Below are positions 1,414-47,041 of a stretch of 64,000 bases of DNA, piece by piece. A model generated the notes under the pieces. That model made no database searches and had not been told where the DNA came from. It saw nothing but the letters and a program-made list of their open reading frames with translations. Positions within the stretch are counted from its first letter, which is position 1. Each line of letters opens with the position of its first letter. The stretch covers positions 16,907 to 80,906 of the forward strand of contig ONVK01000001.1 in NCBI GenBank assembly GCA_900321255.1. The letters are read 5' to 3'. This DNA is from an uncultured Lentisphaerota bacterium (GTDB taxonomy: Bacteria > Verrucomicrobiota > Kiritimatiellia > RFP12 > UBA1067). The position numbers were made by a program, and so were the translations under genes.

Positions 1414-1664
1414 AGAAGAGGGAATACAGGATTGACCTCGGTGGCGTGAGGAGCGCGAGGGCGCTTCACGCACGACTTGACGGGAAGCTGCCGTTTCCCG
1501 AGGGATACGGGCGCAATCTCGACGCGCTGTACGATTTCCTCACGGAGTACGGCCCGCGGCTGCGTATAGTGTTCGAGAACGCGAAAGGAGCGCCGGCGTC
1601 TCTGAAGAGGCTGTGCGCCGACGCCGTGGCGGGAACGCCTGGGCTCGAAATCGTCTTCGCATAG
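1410..1664 (+). CDS. barstar-like ribonuclease inhibitor
   Basis: 85-aa ORF whose ATG overlaps the barnase TGA (ATGA). The motif FPEGYGRNLDALYDFLT matches barstar LPEYYGENLDALWDCLT. The track ORF 1296..1664 is this frame extended upstream. Confidence 0.8.
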   Translation: MKKREYRIDLGGVRSARALHARLDGKLPFPEGYGRNLDALYDFLTEYGPRLRIVFENAKGAPASLKRLCADAVAGTPGLEIVFA

Positions 1665-1716
1665 AGCCCGGTCGGCGGCGCGGGGCGGGGTTCGTCGCAT
1701 GGCGGTCCTTCGGCAG

Positions 1717-1746
1717 TTGCCGAGAGACCGTCCATAATGGTATAAT
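1717..1746 (+). promoter_or_regulatory. sigma70-type promoter (-35 TTGCCG, extended -10 TGGTATAAT)
   Basis: AT-rich TGGTATAAT at about 1738-1746 in a GC-rich background, with TTGCCG 18 bp upstream. The dCMP deaminase ATG lies 10 nt after the -10, implying a near-leaderless mRNA. Confidence 0.5.
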
Positions 1747-1755
1747 ATCAAACCA

Positions 1756-2238
1756 ATGGCCAAAAAGATCAAAGATCCGCGTCCAAGTTGGGACGAGTAC
1801 TTCATGGAGATCGCGACGGTCGTCTCGAAGCGCAGCAACTGCATGCGCAGGAGCGTCGGCGCGGTCGTGATGAAGGACAACCACATCCTCTCAACCGGCT
1901 ACAACGGCACTCCGCGCGGCGTCAAGAACTGCTTCGCCGGCGGCTGCCCGCGCTGCGCGGCAACGACGAAAAGCGGGACCCATCTCGAGGAATGCCTCTG
2001 CACCCACGCCGAGCAGAACGCGATCTGCCAGGCCGCCTACTATGGCAACTCCATCGCTGGCGGCACGATCTACATCACGATTTCTCCTTGCCTCACCTGC
2101 GCGAAGCTAATCATCAACTCCGGCATAAAGGAGGTTGTCTATGGCGGCGACTACGCCTTCATCGACAAGGTGAAGGAGATGTTCAAGGCGGCCGGGGTGA
2201 AGCACAGGAAGTTTAAAGTTCAAAGTTTAAAGTTATAA
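1756..2238 (+). CDS. comEB: deoxycytidylate (dCMP) deaminase
   Basis: CMP/dCMP deaminase zinc motifs CTHAEQNA and PCLTCAKLI, and N-terminal RPSWDEYFM typical of dCMP deaminase. Confidence 0.85.
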   Translation: MAKKIKDPRPSWDEYFMEIATVVSKRSNCMRRSVGAVVMKDNHILSTGYNGTPRGVKNCFAGGCPRCAATTKSGTHLEECLCTHAEQNAICQAAYYGNSIAGGTIYITISPCLTCAKLIINSGIKEVVYGGDYAFIDKVKEMFKAAGVKHRKFKVQSLKL

Positions 2239-2272
2239 GTTCAAGGTTTCTAAAACAGGAGTAACAGATACA

Positions 2273-3028
<756 letters not shown>

Positions 3029-3095
3029 GGCAAGTTTAAAATGTAAAGTGTAAAGTGTAAAACTGGTGAAATCCTTTAAGTGCTGGACTTGCAAG

Positions 3096-3713
3096 ATGAA
3101 ATTCAGAACTTCTTCCTTCAGGGCGTTTTACGTTTTACACTTTTCACTTTACGCTCTCTTCCTCGCGGGCTGCTTTGACGAGCCAGAGCCCGCGTACAAG
3201 TCGGTTCCGGAAGGCGCGCGCGTATATCTCAAGGACATGGGGCTCGCAGACCTTAAGGGGCAGTCGTTCGACGCCTCGAAGGTCGACTACCTGAACCTTG
3301 ACCGCAACGCGCTCACGAACGTCGACGAAGTGGCGTCGCTCGCGGGGCTCAAGTGGCTTCGGCTCAACTCGAACCAGCTTTCGGCGCTTCCGTCGCTTGG
3401 CGAGCTAAAGTCGCTTCGCCGCATCTACCTCAGGGACAACAAGTTCACCGAGGTGCCGGAGACGCTGAAGGACCTTCCCGCGCTTACGGACATCGACCTT
3501 TCCGGGAACCCGGTTTCGGAAATCCCCGAGTGGCTTGCGAAGAAGGAAGGGCTTCAGTTCCTCTCCTTCTCACGCACGAAGATTTCGAAGCTGCCTGACG
3601 ATCTTTCCGCATGGAAACGCCTGAAGGCGCTCCAGCTCGGCGATCTCCAGATGACTCCCGAGGAGATGTCGCGGATCCGAAAGGCGCTTCCAGATGTCGC
3701 TGTCGTCTTCTGA
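3096..3713 (+). CDS. leucine-rich-repeat lipoprotein
   Basis: Lipoprotein signal MKFRTSSFRAFYVLHFSLYALFLAGC (lipobox LAGC), followed by LRR units LxxLxLxxNxL such as LKWLRLNSNQLSALPSL and LRRIYLRDNKFTEVP. The track ORF starts at GTG 3066; ATG 3096 is preferred. Confidence 0.6.
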   Translation: MKFRTSSFRAFYVLHFSLYALFLAGCFDEPEPAYKSVPEGARVYLKDMGLADLKGQSFDASKVDYLNLDRNALTNVDEVASLAGLKWLRLNSNQLSALPSLGELKSLRRIYLRDNKFTEVPETLKDLPALTDIDLSGNPVSEIPEWLAKKEGLQFLSFSRTKISKLPDDLSAWKRLKALQLGDLQMTPEEMSRIRKALPDVAVVF

Positions 3714-5094
3714 GACGAAGGAGCTGGCGTCCGGCAAGATCGGGCGCCTTCTTTTCAGATACTCGTGGCCCGCGCTGGTCGCGATGGCGCTCAACTCGTT
3801 CTACACCGTCGTCGACCGCGCGTTTATAGGCCACGGCTGCGGCGTCGACGCGATGGCGGGACTTCAGCTCGCGATGCCGGTCGTGATGTTCCTCACGGCG
3901 TTCGGCCCGCTCATAGGCGTTGGACACGCGTCTGTGCTGTCGATCAAGCTCGGCGCGGGCGATCGCATAGCCTGCGAAAAACTGGTTGGCGAGACGGTGG
4001 CGCTCAAGATCGCGTTCTATGCCGTCCTCATTCCGCTTCTCTACGTCTTCATCGATCCTCTGCTCGCCCTCTGCGGCGCGGGCGAGGTAACGCCGGGAGC
4101 GGCGGCCGCCGCGAAGTCGTATCTCCAGATCGTCCTCTTTTCGCATATCTTCTCGCATCTCGCGTTCGGCCTTTCCGCTCTGCACCGCGCTGAGGGAGGG
4201 GCGATCCGCTCGATGATGTGCATGATCGTCGGCTTCGGCGCGAACATCGTGCTCGATCCGATTCTCATCTTCGGCTTCGGCCTCGGCGTTGCGGGCGCGG
4301 CGTGGGCGACGAACGTCGCGATGCTGCTTTCTTGCCTCTGGGCGTTTTCATACTACTGGACTGGCCGGAGCGTCGTCAGGCTCAGGCTGCGCCGCATATG
4401 GATCTACCCGCAGCTTCTCGCGCGGACGCTCTCCATCGGCCTTGCGCCGTTTCTCCAGCAGCTTATGAGCGCGGTCATCATCGCCTCTCTCCAGATTGCG
4501 TTCACGAAGTGGATGCCCGATGAGGATGCGCGTACGGCGGAGATCGCCTCTCTCGGCGTCTTCAGCAGCGCGCTAATCCTCGTCATCATGCCGATACTCG
4601 GCTGCCAGCAGGGGCTTCAGCCGATCTTCGGGTACAACTGGGGGGCGAGGAACTTCCGCCGCGTCCTCGAAACCCTCAAGACCGGTTTCCTCGTCACGAC
4701 CGTCCTCTGCGTACTGGCGTTCGTCGTTCAGGTATTGCCGCCTTTCCCGACGTGGCTTGCGAGACTCTTCGTCGACAACGCCAACGAAGACCTTGTCGCC
4801 CTGTGTGCGCACGACCTTGCGCTTTCGAACTGCATGATCTGGACGATTTCGATCAACGTCGTCGCGACGACGTACTTCCAGTCGATCGGCAAGCCGGTTG
4901 TCGCCATCGTGCTTTCCCTTCTCCGGCAGGGGCTCGTGCTTCTCCCCATCATCTGGTTCCTTCCTCATTTTCTCGACGACAAGCCGTTCGCGATATGGCT
5001 TTCAATGCCGGTTTCCGACGTCCTCTGCCAGCTTGCTACGCTCCTGCCGCTTCTCCTGCACGCGCGTTTTCTCTCCCGTGTCAGGTCACGCTGA
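3694..5094 (+). CDS. MATE family multidrug efflux transporter
   Basis: 466 aa with 12 predicted TM segments and MATE-type N-terminal and mid-protein repeats (NSFYTVVDRAFIGH, GLQLAMPV). Confidence 0.8.
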   Translation: MSLSSSETKELASGKIGRLLFRYSWPALVAMALNSFYTVVDRAFIGHGCGVDAMAGLQLAMPVVMFLTAFGPLIGVGHASVLSIKLGAGDRIACEKLVGETVALKIAFYAVLIPLLYVFIDPLLALCGAGEVTPGAAAAAKSYLQIVLFSHIFSHLAFGLSALHRAEGGAIRSMMCMIVGFGANIVLDPILIFGFGLGVAGAAWATNVAMLLSCLWAFSYYWTGRSVVRLRLRRIWIYPQLLARTLSIGLAPFLQQLMSAVIIASLQIAFTKWMPDEDARTAEIASLGVFSSALILVIMPILGCQQGLQPIFGYNWGARNFRRVLETLKTGFLVTTVLCVLAFVVQVLPPFPTWLARLFVDNANEDLVALCAHDLALSNCMIWTISINVVATTYFQSIGKPVVAIVLSLLRQGLVLLPIIWFLPHFLDDKPFAIWLSMPVSDVLCQLATLLPLLLHARFLSRVRSR

Positions 5095-8280: not shown

Positions 8281-8924
8281 AGAGGGATGGAGTAAACATC
8301 ATCGCCGAGTTCAAGCGCGCGTCGCCGTCGCTTGGCGACATAGACGTCGCGGCCGATCCGGTCGCAAAGGCGAAGATATACGAATCGGGCGGAGCGGCCG
8401 CGATGTCGGTCCTCTGCGACGCCGCGCGGTTCAAGGGAAGCGTCGAGGACCTGCGGCGCGTCGCCGCGTCGGGCGCGAAGATCCCGCTTCTCGCCAAGGA
8501 CTTCATCTCGGAGAAGGAGCGTCTCCGCGAGGCGAAGGACGCGGGCGCGAGTGCGGCCCTGCTGATCGTGCGCTACCTTGACGACGAGAAGCTTTCAGAG
8601 CTTCTTGCCGAGGCGCGCTCGCTCGGGCTTGACGCGCTTGTCGAGACGCACAGCGAGGAGGAGATAAAGAGGGCGGTCGCAGTCGGCGCTGACATCATCG
8701 GCGTCAACTGCCGCGACCTTTCCAACTTCACGGTGGACGTGTCGATATCGGAGCGGCTGCTAAAGGCGATTCCGGACGGAATCGTCAAGGTCGCAGAGAG
8801 CGGCATCAAGACGAACGCCGACATCGCGCGGCTCAGGGCGGCGGGCGCGAACGCGTTCCTTATAGGAACTGCGCTTATGAAATCGCAAGACCCGGCAAAA
8901 CTGTTGTCGATTTTAACCATGTAG
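8259..8924 (+). CDS. trpC: indole-3-glycerol phosphate synthase (short form)
   Basis: NIIAEFKRASPS.G, LCDAARFKGS, and the IGVNCRDL and LIGTALMK motifs. Starts at an ATG inside the trpGD 3' end (22-nt overlap). The track ORF 7608..8924 is the same frame over-extended. Confidence 0.85.
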   Translation: MHFKDALKRDGVNIIAEFKRASPSLGDIDVAADPVAKAKIYESGGAAAMSVLCDAARFKGSVEDLRRVAASGAKIPLLAKDFISEKERLREAKDAGASAALLIVRYLDDEKLSELLAEARSLGLDALVETHSEEEIKRAVAVGADIIGVNCRDLSNFTVDVSISERLLKAIPDGIVKVAESGIKTNADIARLRAAGANAFLIGTALMKSQDPAKLLSILTM

Positions 8925-9038
8925 AACGTGTAGATCGTGTAGAAATCCTGCATGTTTCTACACGTTCTACACGGCTAATTATCTTCGACAAGAGGATTTC
9001 AATTACGACACTATTTTAAAATCGAAACGATCACAATC

Positions 9039-42396: not shown

Positions 42397-42441
42397 TATG
42401 GAAACAACAGAAACAACGTGTAAAAACAACATCATCTTTCC

Positions 42442-42510
42442 CGCCGCGAAACCTCGCGGCGTTCTTGAACCGGCGGGCGCGTTGCCCGCCGTAAAAGAAG
42501 TTGTTTTTAT
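42442..42510 (+). terminator. putative terminator / dyad-symmetric structured region after hydF
   Basis: Two GC hairpins (CGCCGCGA-AACC-TCGCGGCG and CCGGCGGGC-GCGTT-GCCCGCCG), then TTGTTTTTAT. The whole is flanked by an approximately 30-nt imperfect inverted repeat (GAAACAACAGAAACAAC... / ...GTTGTTTTTATCAGTTGTT). Confidence 0.35.
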
Positions 42511-42560
42511 CAGTTGTTAATGTTGTTTTATTCAAAACATGCCAGAACAGGAAATCTAAA

Positions 42561-43376: not shown

Positions 43377-45946
43377 TGTTCCCAGTTGAAGAGAAGATAG
43401 ATGATATTCGTCGCGCGCTCGCGGCGAACAGGGATGTTGTCCTCACTGCGCCTCCCGGAAGCGGCAAGACTACTTGCGTGCCGCCGGCGCTCTTGGATGA
43501 GCCGTGGCTTGTGGGCAAGAAGATCGTCATGCTTGAACCGCGGCGGCTTGCCGCGCGCAACTGCGCGGCCTACATCGCGCGTAGACGCGGCGAGGCGGTT
43601 GGAGGCACCGTCGGCTACCAGGTGCGGCTTGAGCGCAAGATTTCCGCGGCAACGCGGCTTGAGATCGTGACGGAAGGGCTGCTCACTCAGCGTCTTCTTT
43701 CAGACCCGGAGCTTTCGGATGTCGGGCTCGTGATCTTCGATGAATTCCACGAGCGCTCGCTCCCCTGCGACACCGCGTTTGCGCTCGCGCTCGAAGTGCG
43801 ACGTGCGCTTAGGCCGGATCTTCGCATCCTTGTCATGTCAGCGACGCTCGACGCCGATGAAGTCGCCGCGCATCTCGGTGACGCCGACATCATTCGCGCC
43901 GAAGGGCGCATGTTTCCTGTTGAGACAAATTACCTTGGCGACATGTCGATGACGGCGGCGATATCGAAGGCACTGAAGGAAACGGATGGCGACATGCTTT
44001 GCTTTCTGCCGGGAGAGGGCGAGATAAGGCGCGTGCAGGAGGCGGTTGGCGCAGTGCGCGATGTCGATGTTCTTCCGCTCTACGGCAGTCTCCCCAAGGA
44101 AGAGCAGGACAGGGTATTTGAGCGCGGCGGACGGCGCAAGGTCATTCTCGCTACGTCGATCGCCGAGACTTCGGTTACGATCGAGGGCATTTCGACGGTG
44201 ATCGACTCGGGGCTTATGCGTGTGCCGCGCTTTCGCCCTGCGTCCGGGATGTCGGGGCTTGTGACTTTGCCGCTCACGCAAGACCGCGCAGAGCAGCGCA
44301 GAGGTCGCGCGGGGCGCTTGCGCGCGGGAGTTTGCTATCGGCTCTGGAGCGAGGGCGAGCAGCAGTCGCGTCCAAAGAAGATGATGCCAGAGATACTTGA
44401 CGCCGACCTTTGCTCGCTCGTTCTGACAAGCGCGGCGTGGGGTGCGCTTGGGCGCGAGGATCTGCCGTGGATGACACCGCCACCTGCGTCGAACTGGGAT
44501 CAGGCGGTAGGGCTTCTCAAGATGCTTGGTGCGCTTGATGGCGACGGACGGCTCACGAAGAAGGGCGAGGCGATGGCGAAGCTCCCGATGCATCCAAGGT
44601 TGGCGAATATGGTGATTGGTGGTAGCCGTATAGAAGGGGTTGGTGAGGCGTCGCTGCTGGCGGCGATTGTAGAAGAGGGGAATAGAAGCCGCGAGACGGA
44701 TATTAGGAAGATTGCCGAGGAGATCAGGGAGACGCCGAACCGTCCGTTTTCGAAAAGGGTGCTTCAGTTGGCACGGCGGTTTAACAAAGGGTCAGACCCC
44801 TCTGACACAGTAGCTGATACAGCTAAAGCTGCAATCAGCTACTGCAGTCAGAAAGGTCTGACCCTAGAAGGCTCTCTTCTTGCGCTTGCGTATCCTGACA
44901 GGGTTGCGAAGAACCGGGGAAATGGAACGTTCCGCATGGTGTCTGGGCGCGGCGCATTCCTCGACCAGTCCGATCCGCTTGCGAAGTCGCCTTATCTCGT
45001 CTGCTGCGAGCTCGACGACCGCGCGGGCGATGCGAAGGTCTTTCTTGGCTGTCCCATTGGCGAGGACGAGATCGAAGACCTCTTCGGCGATCGCATAACC
45101 GAGGAGCCGTACTGCGCGTGGGACAGGCAGAACGACCGCGTGAAGAGCGTCGTTCGCCGCAAGCTTGGCGAGATGACCCTTGGGGAGAAGCCGCTCTCGG
45201 CGGCAGACTCGCGCCACTCGGTGGACGTCGACGCAAGGATATCGGCGGCGCTTCTTGATGGCATTCGCCAGAAGGGAGTCGAGAATCTTCCCTGCTGGAC
45301 GAAGGAGTCGCGGCAATTCCGCGCAAGAATGGCGTTTTTGTCGCGGGTTTCTGGAAAAGGGTCAGACCCCTCTGACACAGTAACTGACACAGCTAAAGCT
45401 GCAGTCAGCTACTGCAGTCAGAAGGGTCTGACCCTAGACGCCAATAAAAATGGGGGTGAGTGGCCAAATCCAACTGATGGGGCGATTCTTGCCGCGTTGC
45501 CTGGTTTCATCGGCGGGATGACGAAGTGGAAGGATTTGGAGCGGCTTGACCTCTTTTCGGTCTTTGACTTTATGCTCGCGGAAGCGGGGCATGATAGGCG
45601 CGAGCTCGATCGTCTTGCGCCTACGCGCATGGAGGTTCCGAGCGGCAGCCACATGCTGATTCACTACGAGGGTGACGAACCGACGTGCGAAGTGCGGCTT
45701 CAGGAATGTTTCGGGCTTATGGAGACGCCGAAGGTCGCAGGCGGGAAAGTTCCTGTCGTAATGACGCTTCTTTCGCCTGCACAGCGGCCAATCCAGATAA
45801 CGAAAGACCTTGCGGGATTCTGGCGAGAAGGGTACCAGCTTGTCCGCAAGGACATGCGTGGCCGCTACCCGAAGCACTATTGGCCGGAAGACCCGTTCAC
45901 CGCCGTCGCGACACGTCGCACCGTCAAGCGTGCTGGCCAGGCCTGA
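43376..45946 (+). CDS. hrpB: ATP-dependent RNA helicase HrpB (with two in-frame 27-codon palindromic insertions)
   Basis: DEAH-box helicase motifs (GSGKTT, DEFHER, SAT), the HA2 and C-terminal HrpB domains. 856 aa versus about 809 typical; the excess is accounted for by two copies of KGSDPSDTV.DTAKAA.SYCSQKGLTL. Confidence 0.85.
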   Translation: MFPVEEKIDDIRRALAANRDVVLTAPPGSGKTTCVPPALLDEPWLVGKKIVMLEPRRLAARNCAAYIARRRGEAVGGTVGYQVRLERKISAATRLEIVTEGLLTQRLLSDPELSDVGLVIFDEFHERSLPCDTAFALALEVRRALRPDLRILVMSATLDADEVAAHLGDADIIRAEGRMFPVETNYLGDMSMTAAISKALKETDGDMLCFLPGEGEIRRVQEAVGAVRDVDVLPLYGSLPKEEQDRVFERGGRRKVILATSIAETSVTIEGISTVIDSGLMRVPRFRPASGMSGLVTLPLTQDRAEQRRGRAGRLRAGVCYRLWSEGEQQSRPKKMMPEILDADLCSLVLTSAAWGALGREDLPWMTPPPASNWDQAVGLLKMLGALDGDGRLTKKGEAMAKLPMHPRLANMVIGGSRIEGVGEASLLAAIVEEGNRSRETDIRKIAEEIRETPNRPFSKRVLQLARRFNKGSDPSDTVADTAKAAISYCSQKGLTLEGSLLALAYPDRVAKNRGNGTFRMVSGRGAFLDQSDPLAKSPYLVCCELDDRAGDAKVFLGCPIGEDEIEDLFGDRITEEPYCAWDRQNDRVKSVVRRKLGEMTLGEKPLSAADSRHSVDVDARISAALLDGIRQKGVENLPCWTKESRQFRARMAFLSRVSGKGSDPSDTVTDTAKAAVSYCSQKGLTLDANKNGGEWPNPTDGAILAALPGFIGGMTKWKDLERLDLFSVFDFMLAEAGHDRRELDRLAPTRMEVPSGSHMLIHYEGDEPTCEVRLQECFGLMETPKVAGGKVPVVMTLLSPAQRPIQITKDLAGFWREGYQLVRKDMRGRYPKHYWPEDPFTAVATRRTVKRAGQA
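44786..44866 (+). repeat. 81-bp near-perfect palindromic element inserted in-frame in hrpB (copy 1)
   Basis: AAAGGGTCAGACC...CTGACACAGTAGCTGAT-ACAGCTAAAGCTGCA-ATCAGCTACTGCAGTCAG...GGTCTGACCCTAG. Arms are mutually complementary; 27 codons. Confidence 0.8.
45356..45436 (+). repeat. 81-bp palindromic element inserted in-frame in hrpB (copy 2, same orientation, 570 bp downstream)
   Basis: About 94% identical to copy 1 and encodes the same 26-27 aa peptide. Confidence 0.8.
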
Positions 45947-45955
45947 CGCAGGGTT

Positions 45956-47041
45956 CTATACGAGCTCTTCGAGGATTGCGTCGCAGACTTCGGTGCCGCG
46001 CTCGGTGAGCCGATAGGTGGATTCGTCAATCTTTGTAAGAAGCCCCTCGGCGACGAAGCGGTCGAGGGTTGGCCGCCATTCTGGGAAGCGTGACGAGTCG
46101 ATTCCGTCACGTGTCCTCAGGCGGAAAAGTGTGCGCTCCTTGAGGTCTTCCTTTTCGCTCACCGTTTCGATGGAAGTGGTCGAACCGCAATGTTTATTGG
46201 GGTTTTGCGGGGTCTGTCCCCACCAGTTGCGGGTTCGGGTGAGGCCAACGCGCCCGCATGCGCCTTCGCCGAGGCCAACGTAGTCCTCGCCGCGCCAGAC
46301 CGCGAGATTGTGGCGGCACTCGAAACCTGGGGCGGCGTAGTTGGAGATCTCGTAACGCTCGAGGCCGATTGACTTTAGGAACCGCGCGGCAGATTTTATG
46401 CCGTCCAGAACCGTTTCGTCGTCGGGAACGTTCTTCAGGGCGCGCTCGTTCTGAAGCGAGTAGACGGAGCAGTGGCGCAGTCCCCAGGATGCGAGCGGTG
46501 CGAGAAGGGTGTCCGGGTTCTTGGTCGTAGGGTCGCCCGGGTAGCCGAGAATCAGGTCGATTCCGGCGTTGTCGAAGCGAGACTTCACGAGCGCGAAGGC
46601 GCGCGACGCGTCGCTAGCGGTGTAGCCGCGCCCCATCGCGCGGAGAGTCGCGTCGTCCAAGGACTGGACGCCCATCGAGATGCGGTTGACGCCGATTGAC
46701 TTAAGCTCGTCGAGCTTGGCGGGCGTGACGTCGAGCGGGTGGAGCTCCACCGTGAATTCAAACAGTGGAAAACAGGTCTGACCCGTTTTCCACTGTTTGA
46801 GCGGGGCACGCAGGGGCGAGAGGTCGCAGAGAGCCGGCGAGCCGCCGCCAAAGTAAAGAGTGTTTGGGGTCGGCGTAGTGTCGGTGTTGGAACGGGTGGG
46901 GTTGTGTATGAGAGACTCTAACTCGACCCTAAGCGACTCTACATACTCCGCCCGCGCTGCAGGAGCCGAGCCTGCGCGCGAGTATAGCGAGCAGTAGGAG
47001 CAGCGGCTCCTGCAGAAAGGGAAGTGGACATAAAGGTTCAA
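45956..47041 (-). CDS. hemW: radical SAM heme chaperone HemW (coproporphyrinogen III oxidase-like)
   Basis: HFPFCRSRCSYC (CxxxCxxC) and YFGGGSPA motifs. No ATG near the conserved N-terminus, so a TTG start at 47041 is proposed. The long Arg/Ser-rich N-terminal extension of the track ORF (to 47467) is a GC artifact. Contains a 45-bp in-frame palindrome. Confidence 0.65.
   Translation of the reverse strand: MNLYVHFPFCRSRCSYCSLYSRAGSAPAARAEYVESLRVELESLIHNPTRSNTDTTPTPNTLYFGGGSPALCDLSPLRAPLKQWKTGQTCFPLFEFTVELHPLDVTPAKLDELKSIGVNRISMGVQSLDDATLRAMGRGYTASDASRAFALVKSRFDNAGIDLILGYPGDPTTKNPDTLLAPLASWGLRHCSVYSLQNERALKNVPDDETVLDGIKSAARFLKSIGLERYEISNYAAPGFECRHNLAVWRGEDYVGLGEGACGRVGLTRTRNWWGQTPQNPNKHCGSTTSIETVSEKEDLKERTLFRLRTRDGIDSSRFPEWRPTLDRFVAEGLLTKIDESTYRLTERGTEVCDAILEELV
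46756..46800. repeat. 45-bp perfect-arm palindrome inside hemW (in-frame, 15 codons)
   Basis: TCAAACAGTGGAAAAC-AGGTCTGACCCGT-GTTTTCCACTGTTTGA. Its core AGGTCTGACCC is shared with the hrpB element termini. Confidence 0.7.

Follow-up and report, generated by a model that had tools for sequence, protein, structure and literature searches.

A near-perfect palindrome in frame within a hemW-like gene of an uncultured Kiritimatiellia bacterium: a probable copy of a dispersed family of transposase-associated hairpins

A palindrome of more than 40 bp, symmetrical almost to the last base, is an unusual thing to find translated within a housekeeping gene, and the question is how it came to be there and whether it does anything for its host. 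The case at hand is a hemW-like gene in a stretch of contig ONVK01000001.1 from an uncultured Lentisphaerota bacterium (class Kiritimatiellia); the 64-kb stretch that was analysed is called the window here, and all window coordinates are counted from its first base. We consider it probable that the palindrome is an intragenic, in-frame copy of a family of repetitive extragenic palindromes (REPs) found in ruminant-gut Kiritimatiellae in association with a REP-associated tyrosine transposase (RAYT). The features of the locus on which the argument depends are the following.

46758..46800, no strand assigned: near-perfect 43-bp palindrome, a probable REP-type hairpin element, with a 20-bp hairpin on the hemW mRNA strand
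45956..47041, minus strand: hemW-like radical SAM gene, host of the element, 361 aa, TTG start
46767..46791, no strand assigned: 25-nt family core GGAAAAC-A-GGTC-T-GACC-C-GTTTTCC, common to the dispersed copies
46775..46783, no strand assigned: apex motif GGTCTGACC, self-palindromic, its centre base A or T among copies and among hemW orthologs
46760..46798, minus strand: 13 codons (KQWKTGQTCFPLF) that differ from the empty hemW alleles, from a codon-level comparison with loci L001, L004 and L005

The palindrome consists of two 21-nt arms with a single mismatch around one centre base (TCAAACAGTGGAAAACAGGTC-T-GACCCGTTTTCCACTGTTTGA). Its palindrome score is 18, compared with at most 12 across 20 shuffles of the window, and it is one of the two strong palindromes in the 64 kb. 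A preceding sequence-only reading had described it at 46756-46800 as 16-nt perfect arms around a 13-nt core; this is the same object, except that the first two bases are extra and the true span begins at 46758. As RNA, the sense strand forms a 20-bp hairpin with a folding energy of -39.6 kcal/mol (z = -6.2), and the DNA fold reaches -18.2 kcal/mol (z = -7.7). The palindrome is seen in many independent assemblies, which excludes an assembly artefact. The protein encoded by the host gene contains the CxxxCxxC motif and matches Radical_SAM (63 bits) and, weakly, HemN_C; its homologs are annotated as coproporphyrinogen III oxidase family proteins of Kiritimatiellae. The in-frame position was correctly recognized at the outset: the minus-strand gene is read through the palindrome without a frame break, the coding strand at this point being CTC AAA CAG TGG AAA ACG GGT CAG ACC TGT TTT CCA CTG TTT GAA TTC, which translates to LKQWKTGQTCFPLFEF. 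In the AlphaFold2 model of HemW, the element peptide forms a coil (residues 83-94) between a helix (75-82) and a strand (95-100), with a predicted local distance difference test (pLDDT) value of about 71 for the peptide vs 93 and 83 in the flanks. In the (beta/alpha)-barrel topology, the connection from a helix to the next strand lies on the face opposite the active site, and by this topology the element loop would occupy the non-catalytic face of the radical-SAM barrel.

The HemW homologs fall into those that carry the element and those that lack it. We aligned 42 homologs and took 120 for classification, of which 113 (from Kiritimatiellae) were classifiable. The element peptide is present in 37 of the 113; in 34 carriers it is KQWKTGQTCFPLF or a one-residue variant of it, in two it is KHCTTGQTCFAMF and in one KHRKTGQTCFPMF. 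The non-carriers mostly have a segment of 17-19 residues at this position, for example DLTPLKGALAPLLDENT, and the peptide is missing from many orthologs as well as from distant homologs; its conservation across distant taxa, named in the preceding reading as an observation that would refute it, is thus not seen. At the codon level, the empty alleles of L001, L004 and L005 have about 24 nt between CTC and GAR-TTC, compared with 39 nt in the filled allele, which is longer by 15 nt (5 codons). Given that 39 nt stand for about 24 nt, the difference is a replacement and not the clean 45-bp insertion of 15 codons that had been proposed from the window alone. The replaced part is the C-terminal portion of the connection between helix alpha2 and strand beta3. 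The assumption that HemW proteins normally have a short linker here does not hold either: in HemN (1OLT) and NocN, the segment from GGGTP to the ExTxE strand, helix alpha2 included, comprises 22-24 residues without similarity to the element peptide.

The same alpha2-beta3 site is a hotspot for other inserts. Sequences unrelated to the element are found there in the HemW homologs P0021, P0041, P0059, P0067, P0068, P0072, P0102, P0103, P0113 and P0119, and include 27-nt tandem repeats encoding RPYPTLSDP and the peptide NWGQTPKE twice over, among others.

In the HemW tree, the deep-branching sequences are mostly empty and the filled state is therefore derived, with filled and empty alleles interleaved at short distances. 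The junctions are identical in all filled alleles. Sliding-window nucleotide divergence between L003 (filled) and L005 (empty) is 0% over the first 60 and the last 70 codons and about 60% in the 25 codons preceding the element. The scatter of carriers across the tree is explained by the mosaic nature of hemW, which has been shuffled by recombination, and the simplest reading is a single old event followed by exchange of the filled allele through homologous recombination.

Two further observations concern variability within hemW itself. When the window gene (45956-47041) is compared with L003, L023, L027 and L028, segments with 0-10% divergence alternate with segments with 40-75% divergence within single pairs. 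A second variable spot (window 46202-46222, minus strand) contains a mini-palindromic repeat, TGGGGACAGACCCCGCAAAAC, that encodes the peptide WGQTPQN; four consecutive copies of this repeat are present in hemW of L002 and GGGGACTGTCCCC variants in hemW of L004, and the motif also adjoins copies of the hairpin family in L006, L008 and L009.

The core of the hemW palindrome recurs at many unrelated loci. It can be written as AAAAC-N-GGTC-W-GACC-N-GTTTT, flanked by outer arms that vary from copy to copy and stay complementary. A genome scan with the exact pattern GGAAAACNGGTCNGACCNGTTTTCC, one genome per species, yielded 20 loci, all from ruminant-gut Kiritimatiellae or uncultured rumen metagenome-assembled genomes (MAGs). 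Three of these are hemW loci, one of which re-samples the L003 contig, and the other 17 are not. Five strict-pattern loci come from the single MAG RUG12478. Among metagenome contigs, the 21-nt inner core is present at at least 120 loci in at least 133 copies. The copies can be clustered, with three in the 6.9-kb L008 and five within 21 kb of L152, and degenerate members of the family exist as well. Across the family, the arms measure 10-26 nt and the elements 27-53 bp, and the outer arm pairs are locus-specific (GG/CC, GC/GC, GAG/CTC, GTC/GAC, GAT/ATC and others). Among 20 copies, 13 of the 22 stem pairs have both bases changed; the score for covariation, 0.351, compares with 0.122 for shuffled data (0 of 500 as high) and with 0.04-0.11 for slid registers. 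The stem pairs are nearly all Watson-Crick, and 23% of 137 copies have a mismatch 5 nt from the centre.

No target-site duplication was detected, the direct repeats at the borders being no longer than in shuffled pairings, and no base is conserved within 15 nt of the palindromes on either flank. A GTAG, GTGG or CGTC head was not found beside the hairpin, the conserved part of which consists of the apex and the inner stem. A miniature inverted-repeat transposable element was considered and rejected on account of the lack of a target-site duplication of fixed length and because the unit consists of a single hairpin, with no non-palindromic body inside it. Also dropped was the idea that L006 and hemW have flanks or microhomology in common: the resemblance is the family's own outer arm (CCCAAAC...GTTTGGG), which is seen in other members of the subfamily.

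The usual position of a copy is 0-35 nt past a stop codon. Among the non-hemW genome copies, 11 of 17 follow a stop codon at a distance of 0-72 nt, in many cases in a gap between co-directional genes. In the metagenome set, a confident open reading frame (ORF) ends near 42 copies; for 28 of these, the stop is located 1-35 nt before the core, and in five cases the ORF ends at the central TGA of the element itself. Copies in frame within other genes are found as well. In a glycoside-hydrolase-like (GH-like) gene of L020, SKWKTGLTCFPLA replaces PDAVSAEIVP of the orthologs; another copy lies in a GT4 glycosyltransferase gene of L015 and its ortholog in L152; and the genes for a Dld-like FAD oxidoreductase in L046 and L150 have alleles with a net gain of 27 nt over the empty TCC GCG GCC TTC, namely GGC-core-GCC ACA TCG TTC and GCG-core-CGC ACG GGA TTT. 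Further candidates are present in L067 and L088. Nearly all in-frame copies are read in the same self-symmetric frame, K-T-G-(Q/L)-T-x-F. The proposal of an in-frame palindromic element class, made when only the window had been read, thus holds in so far as the element is repeated and occurs in frame in at least three genes other than hemW; the family is not, however, primarily an in-frame one, as most copies follow stop codons.

The link to a transposase comes from the multi-copy contigs, on which a conserved ORF of 353-369 aa is tightly bracketed by the hairpins. A tblastn search identified homologs of this ORF on nine contigs.

L089, 193-1302: RAYT-like gene
L152, 10001-11110: RAYT-like gene
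L052, L029, L033, L134, L038, L078 and L108: further RAYT-like genes

In seven of the eight contigs that were mapped in detail (L051, which has two family copies, is outside this set), copies of the family flank the RAYT-like gene on both sides. The upstream copies are located 13-143 nt before the start; on the downstream side, the copy either follows the stop by 2 nt or overlaps with it; on L108, only the upstream copy fits the pattern and the downstream one is degenerate. The central TGA of the downstream element is the stop codon of the ORF in L089, L052 and L029. The encoded proteins match Pfam PF01797 (Y1_Tnp; 23.3 and 27.7 bits) and NCBIfam NF047646 (REP_Tyr_transpos; E = 1.6e-16, 60.5 bits), and the NHFH (HUH) and GYIHLNP motifs are conserved in all of them. 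They are about twice the usual size; inserted sequence separates the HUH motif from the Tyr motif, and a winged helix is present at the C terminus. The transposase variant and the arm variant go together; in particular, the copies that flank the L052 gene (CCCAAAGTGGGAAAAC...) represent the subfamily nearest to the arms of the hemW palindrome. The 46-kb contig L152 shows 79% identity over 1.3 kb to the Kiritimatiellae MAG contig L015. A Y1/HUH gene bracketed by hairpins, as found on these related contigs, is the defining arrangement of REP-RAYT systems. In L152 (1-21110), the RAYT-like gene is embedded in a polysaccharide-synthesis cluster with glycosyltransferase, Wzy and acyltransferase genes, the same 21 kb that hold the five copies mentioned above.

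We propose that the RAYT-type Y1/HUH transposase (about 360 aa, with the C-terminal winged helix) disperses copies of the hairpin. If it resembles IS200/IS605 and the RAYT of E. coli in this respect, the enzyme would recognise the hairpin as a folded single strand and would leave no target-site duplication. After stop codons, the copies probably function as RNA hairpins at 3' ends, a role that REPs have in other systems. One copy would have entered hemW and replaced the end of helix alpha2 and the loop to strand beta3 with 13 codons. This copy would be tolerated, and might be neutral to the host, because it is free of stops in the frame used (K-T-G-Q/L-T-C-F) and because the loop is predicted to lie on the non-catalytic face of the barrel. 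The derived allele would then have moved among lineages by homologous recombination.

Several observations weigh against this interpretation. The conservation of the core is in part imposed by the search patterns, and the gene positions in the fetched loci are heuristic ORF calls and calls from GC content at third codon positions (GC3). The window contains no second copy of the family, the 25-nt core at 46767..46791 being the sole match even with three mismatches permitted, and no RAYT-like gene was found in it, so that the link to the transposase derives from related contigs and not from the source genome. The Pfam scores are only at the threshold (cut-off 23), the NCBIfam score is under the equivalog cut-off of 80, and a phmmer search of the RAYT-like protein against PDB gave no match to a transposase or a solved RAYT structure. 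The hairpin itself, a near-perfect palindrome with a conserved apex and without a GTAG or CGTC tag, is unlike classical REPs. Host sequence was replaced in the hemW, GH-like and Dld-like genes, whereas simple insertion of the RAYT or IS200 style predicts otherwise. Finally, eight HemW clusters have K-P-G-Q-T-C-F, a peptide that implies an uncompensated A-to-C change in the core, and palindromy is therefore not strictly enforced.

Nevertheless, the palindrome is being maintained within genes, as indicated by compensated base pairs that distinguish orthologous in-gene copies. The hemW variants v1, v2 and v3 have the pairs CAGTGG/CCACTG, CATTGC/GCAATG and CATCGG/CCGATG, respectively, v3 being a perfect 45-bp palindrome; of the two Dld-like orthologs, one has GGC/GCC and the other GCG/CGC. 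The centre base of the hemW orthologs is A or T, which yields Q or L. Correction templated by the hairpin, or gene conversion from other copies, is the most likely cause of the compensation, ahead of selection on the hairpin. Hairpin-templated correction of quasi-palindromes is a known mutational mechanism and yields compensation without selection.

The same changes could, alternatively, reflect selection on the hemW hairpin as a functional cis-element, which would act either in RNA, by adjusting translation or the stability of the mRNA, or in DNA, as a binding site for the RAYT or another protein. The very stable 20-bp sense-strand fold described above is compatible with such a role, as is the sole mismatch between the arms, which becomes a G-U wobble on the mRNA strand. 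The compensated pairs occur in three hemW and two Dld variants at orthologous sites, and the filled allele has been kept in the 37 homologs over about 25% protein divergence. Yet many close lineages thrive with the empty allele or with unrelated inserts at this site, and the uncompensated K-P-G-Q change persists in the eight clusters. The stem pairs of the family show no G-U excess, and the orientation of the wobbles does not follow the transcribed strand (three cases for, one against, an uninformative split). An Rfam scan of the hemW element region matched no family, and the compensation is also expected from template-switch correction of a quasi-palindrome. We therefore regard a selected function of the hemW copy as unlikely and favor its origin as a copy of a RAYT-associated family.

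The dispersal of the family might also be explained without a transposase, if the copies were bidirectional terminators or signals of the DNA-uptake type that spread by recombination and biased uptake; the hemW copy would then have drifted into a tolerant loop, as is the case with uptake signal sequences and DNA uptake sequences (USS/DUS). The form of the core, with an A-tract, a GC-rich stem and a T-tract, fits this possibility, some metagenome variants are terminator-like (for example, AAAAAACGGGTCAGACCCGTTTTTT), copies cluster right past stop codons, including a position between convergent genes in L010, and homologous recombination in hemW is intense. A consensus promoter and terminator scan, however, flagged nothing at the hemW copy or at the intergenic copies of L010 and L013, because no T-run follows the full stem and the T-tract is paired inside it; a rho-independent terminator was rejected on these grounds. 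Moreover, many copies lie between co-directional genes, 3-30 nt from the next start, and the density of the family (one copy in the 64-kb window, five strict copies in a MAG) is far under that of uptake sequences. The bracketing of the Y1-transposase gene on nine contigs would be left unexplained, and this alternative appears to us very improbable, the RAYT-associated family being the better account of the dispersal. Formation of the palindrome in place, by inverted duplication or a template switch that copied the left arm of hemW to the right with only secondary likeness to other loci, hardly deserves credence and is rejected for the core, given that the same 25-nt core is found at 17 genome loci unrelated to each other and at over 130 sites in metagenomes and that intergenic copies of the CAAAC/CAAAG subfamily even have hemW's outer arm, despite a MAFFT alignment that pairs the left arm with ancestral sequence (LNEKT vs KQWKT; CTCAACGAGAAAAC vs CTCAAACAGTGGAAAAC) and leaves only 8 codons new, and despite outer arms that are locus-specific, with each Dld variant keeping one host-like arm (GCG in L150, GCC in L046). 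Local extension of the arms may nevertheless have contributed after the core had been copied in.

What the hemW gene contains is probably selfish DNA of a known kind in a new bacterial lineage, in an unusual place inside a housekeeping gene. In IS200/IS605 elements, the Y1 transposase TnpA acts on subterminal hairpins, and the Kiritimatiellae system resembles them in the Y1_Tnp match, the HUH and Tyr motifs, the hairpins that flank the gene and the lack of target-site duplications. Unlike in IS200/IS605, the hairpins are themselves the dispersed unit and far outnumber the gene, one palindrome serves as both the left and the right hairpin in place of distinct left and right ends (LE and RE), and there is no conserved target tetra- or pentanucleotide.

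The palindromic elements of Rickettsia (RPEs) offer another comparison. The RPEs, the textbook example of palindromic repeats in frame in protein-coding genes (Ogata et al., 2000), are reportedly mostly about 100-150 bp long and belong to an obligate intracellular alphaproteobacterium, and we know of no transposase associated with them. The Kiritimatiellae elements differ in that they are 27-53 bp long, mostly extragenic and accompanied by a candidate RAYT. In common with the RPEs (cited in PMC3733652), they are palindromic repeats that occur in frame and free of stops in housekeeping genes, where they are tolerated at the surface or in loops. The hemW copy behaves in this manner, with the frame kept, no stop, the gene intact and the element missing from the empty orthologs, although the change is a replacement.

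Close parallels also exist with the REP/RAYT/REPIN systems of E. coli, Pseudomonas and Stenotrophomonas (Nunvar et al., 2010, PMC2817692; Bertels and Rainey, 2011, PMC3116915), in which RAYT genes have inverted REPs on both sides and complementary mutations keep the palindrome (PMC2817692). The Kiritimatiellae family similarly is a short dispersed palindromic repeat, mostly extragenic at the 3' ends of genes and without target-site duplication, with a Y1/HUH gene bracketed by the repeats, pairing of variant with variant, and palindromy kept by complementary changes. It departs from these systems in the missing GTAG, GTGG or CGTC head; in the almost perfect hairpin, whose apex and inner stem are conserved and whose outer stem varies; in the RAYT-like protein, with its double size and its winged helix; and in the host, an uncultured lineage of the Planctomycetes-Verrucomicrobia-Chlamydiae (PVC) superphylum as opposed to Proteobacteria. 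Doublet (REPIN) organisation was not seen in the Kiritimatiellae family. The tags GTAG or CGTC define two described REP superfamilies and not REPs as such (PMC3733652).

Intragenic REPs are already described, in Opitutus and Rickettsia. REPs are mostly located downstream of ORFs, to which they supply stop codons, and some are inside genes, with the most intragenic cases in Opitutus terrae and Rickettsia conorii (PMC3733652). The intragenic set from Opitutus terrae and other species includes a host from the PVC superphylum (Opitutus belongs to Verrucomicrobia), with REPs that lie wholly inside ORFs of known proteins or whose termini supply stops (Di Nocera et al., 2013, PMC3733652), and in that set repair or helicase-type genes are often hit (PMC3733652). 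The Kiritimatiellae counterparts are the hemW, GH-like, GT4 and Dld-like genes, together with the several ORFs that end at a central TGA. Unlike the Opitutus REPs, the Kiritimatiellae family is untagged, differs in sequence, and has replaced host codons and not only added to them. The Kiritimatiellae case additionally offers alleles with and without the element, the mosaic structure that recombination has given hemW, and compensated differences between orthologous copies within genes. A literature search for palindromic repeats of Kiritimatiellae found nothing relevant.

What makes the present case of interest is mainly its series of alleles, together with the compensated changes and a RAYT of atypical form. 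REP-RAYT systems, which have been studied almost only in Proteobacteria, would be extended to uncultured ruminant-gut Kiritimatiellae in a variant form with an untagged near-perfect hairpin and a long winged-helix RAYT. In both hemW and the Dld-like gene, the same codon positions are filled, empty or variant depending on the allele, and this makes an unusually clean natural series for the entry and persistence of a hairpin in genes of the essential type. The elements also account for length variation and odd peptides (KTGQTCF and similar) in annotations of Kiritimatiellae proteins, with the warning that such peptides are derived from repeats and are not functional motifs.

The window contains two other palindromic elements in frame, both in hrpB.

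44788..44865, plus strand: hrpB site 1, in-frame palindromic element of 78 bp that has GGTCWGACC at either end
45358..45435, plus strand: hrpB site 2, another in-frame palindromic element of 78 bp

The motif GGTCWGACC occurs six times in the window vs 0.41 expected, four of these at the ends of the hrpB elements, and AGGTCTGACCC, together with its one-mismatch variants, is indeed found at both ends of the two elements. The hemW and hrpB elements had been taken to share a core. The motif is indeed common to them, in the extended form RGGTCWGACCY, at the apex of the hemW hairpin and at each terminus of the hrpB elements; nothing else aligns and the arms share nothing, so that any kinship comes down to 9-11 nt. 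It is possible that this is a recognition motif common to the two kinds of element. The site 1 element is also present at the orthologous hrpB site of L028, and the site 2 element is absent from the orthologs in L003 and L005. When k-mers of the hrpB elements were sought at other loci, the only one identified was the orthologous hrpB site of L028, and a 14-mer match in L130 was dismissed as random. As for hrpB itself, it is 90-92% conserved among the window, L003, L005 and L028, with several hypervariable loops that contain lineage-specific repeats. In L005, hemW (within 242-1480) and hrpB (within 1490-4123) both contain another dispersed in-frame repeat, which encodes RNRPL(R/W)VGATHGEAT(E/K)P.

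A more far-reaching scenario would unite these elements with the hemW palindrome. The RAYT-REP system, with its atypical winged-helix RAYT, would replace patches of host codons of similar length and not simply interrupt the gene, the hairpin would be actively re-symmetrised with outer arms templated from one flank, loop cassettes would spread among lineages by recombination, and the 78-bp hrpB elements would be doublets with GGTCWGACC as the recognition apex. If true, this would mean that a REP system diversifies housekeeping proteins. Taken as a whole, we judge this scenario to be unlikely, and retain the simpler account of the hemW palindrome as a probable in-frame copy of the RAYT-associated family.

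Other repeats were observed in the window and in the fetched loci. AT-rich intergenic inverted repeats at window positions 3037-3151, 8913-8978 and 42402-42528 have arms of 22-32 nt, for example GTAAAGTGTAAAGTGTAAAAC...GTTTTACAC, and their sequence is unrelated to that of the REP family. The extended motif GGGTCWGACCC is also found in other contexts, in L099 (3800-3960), L037 (950-1080) and L091 (3960-4000), for example as CCGGGGTCTGACCCCGCGG, and in terminator-like AAAAAACGGGTCAGACCCGTTTTT units about 50 nt apart, which suggests that this 11-mer is a module common to several types of repeats.

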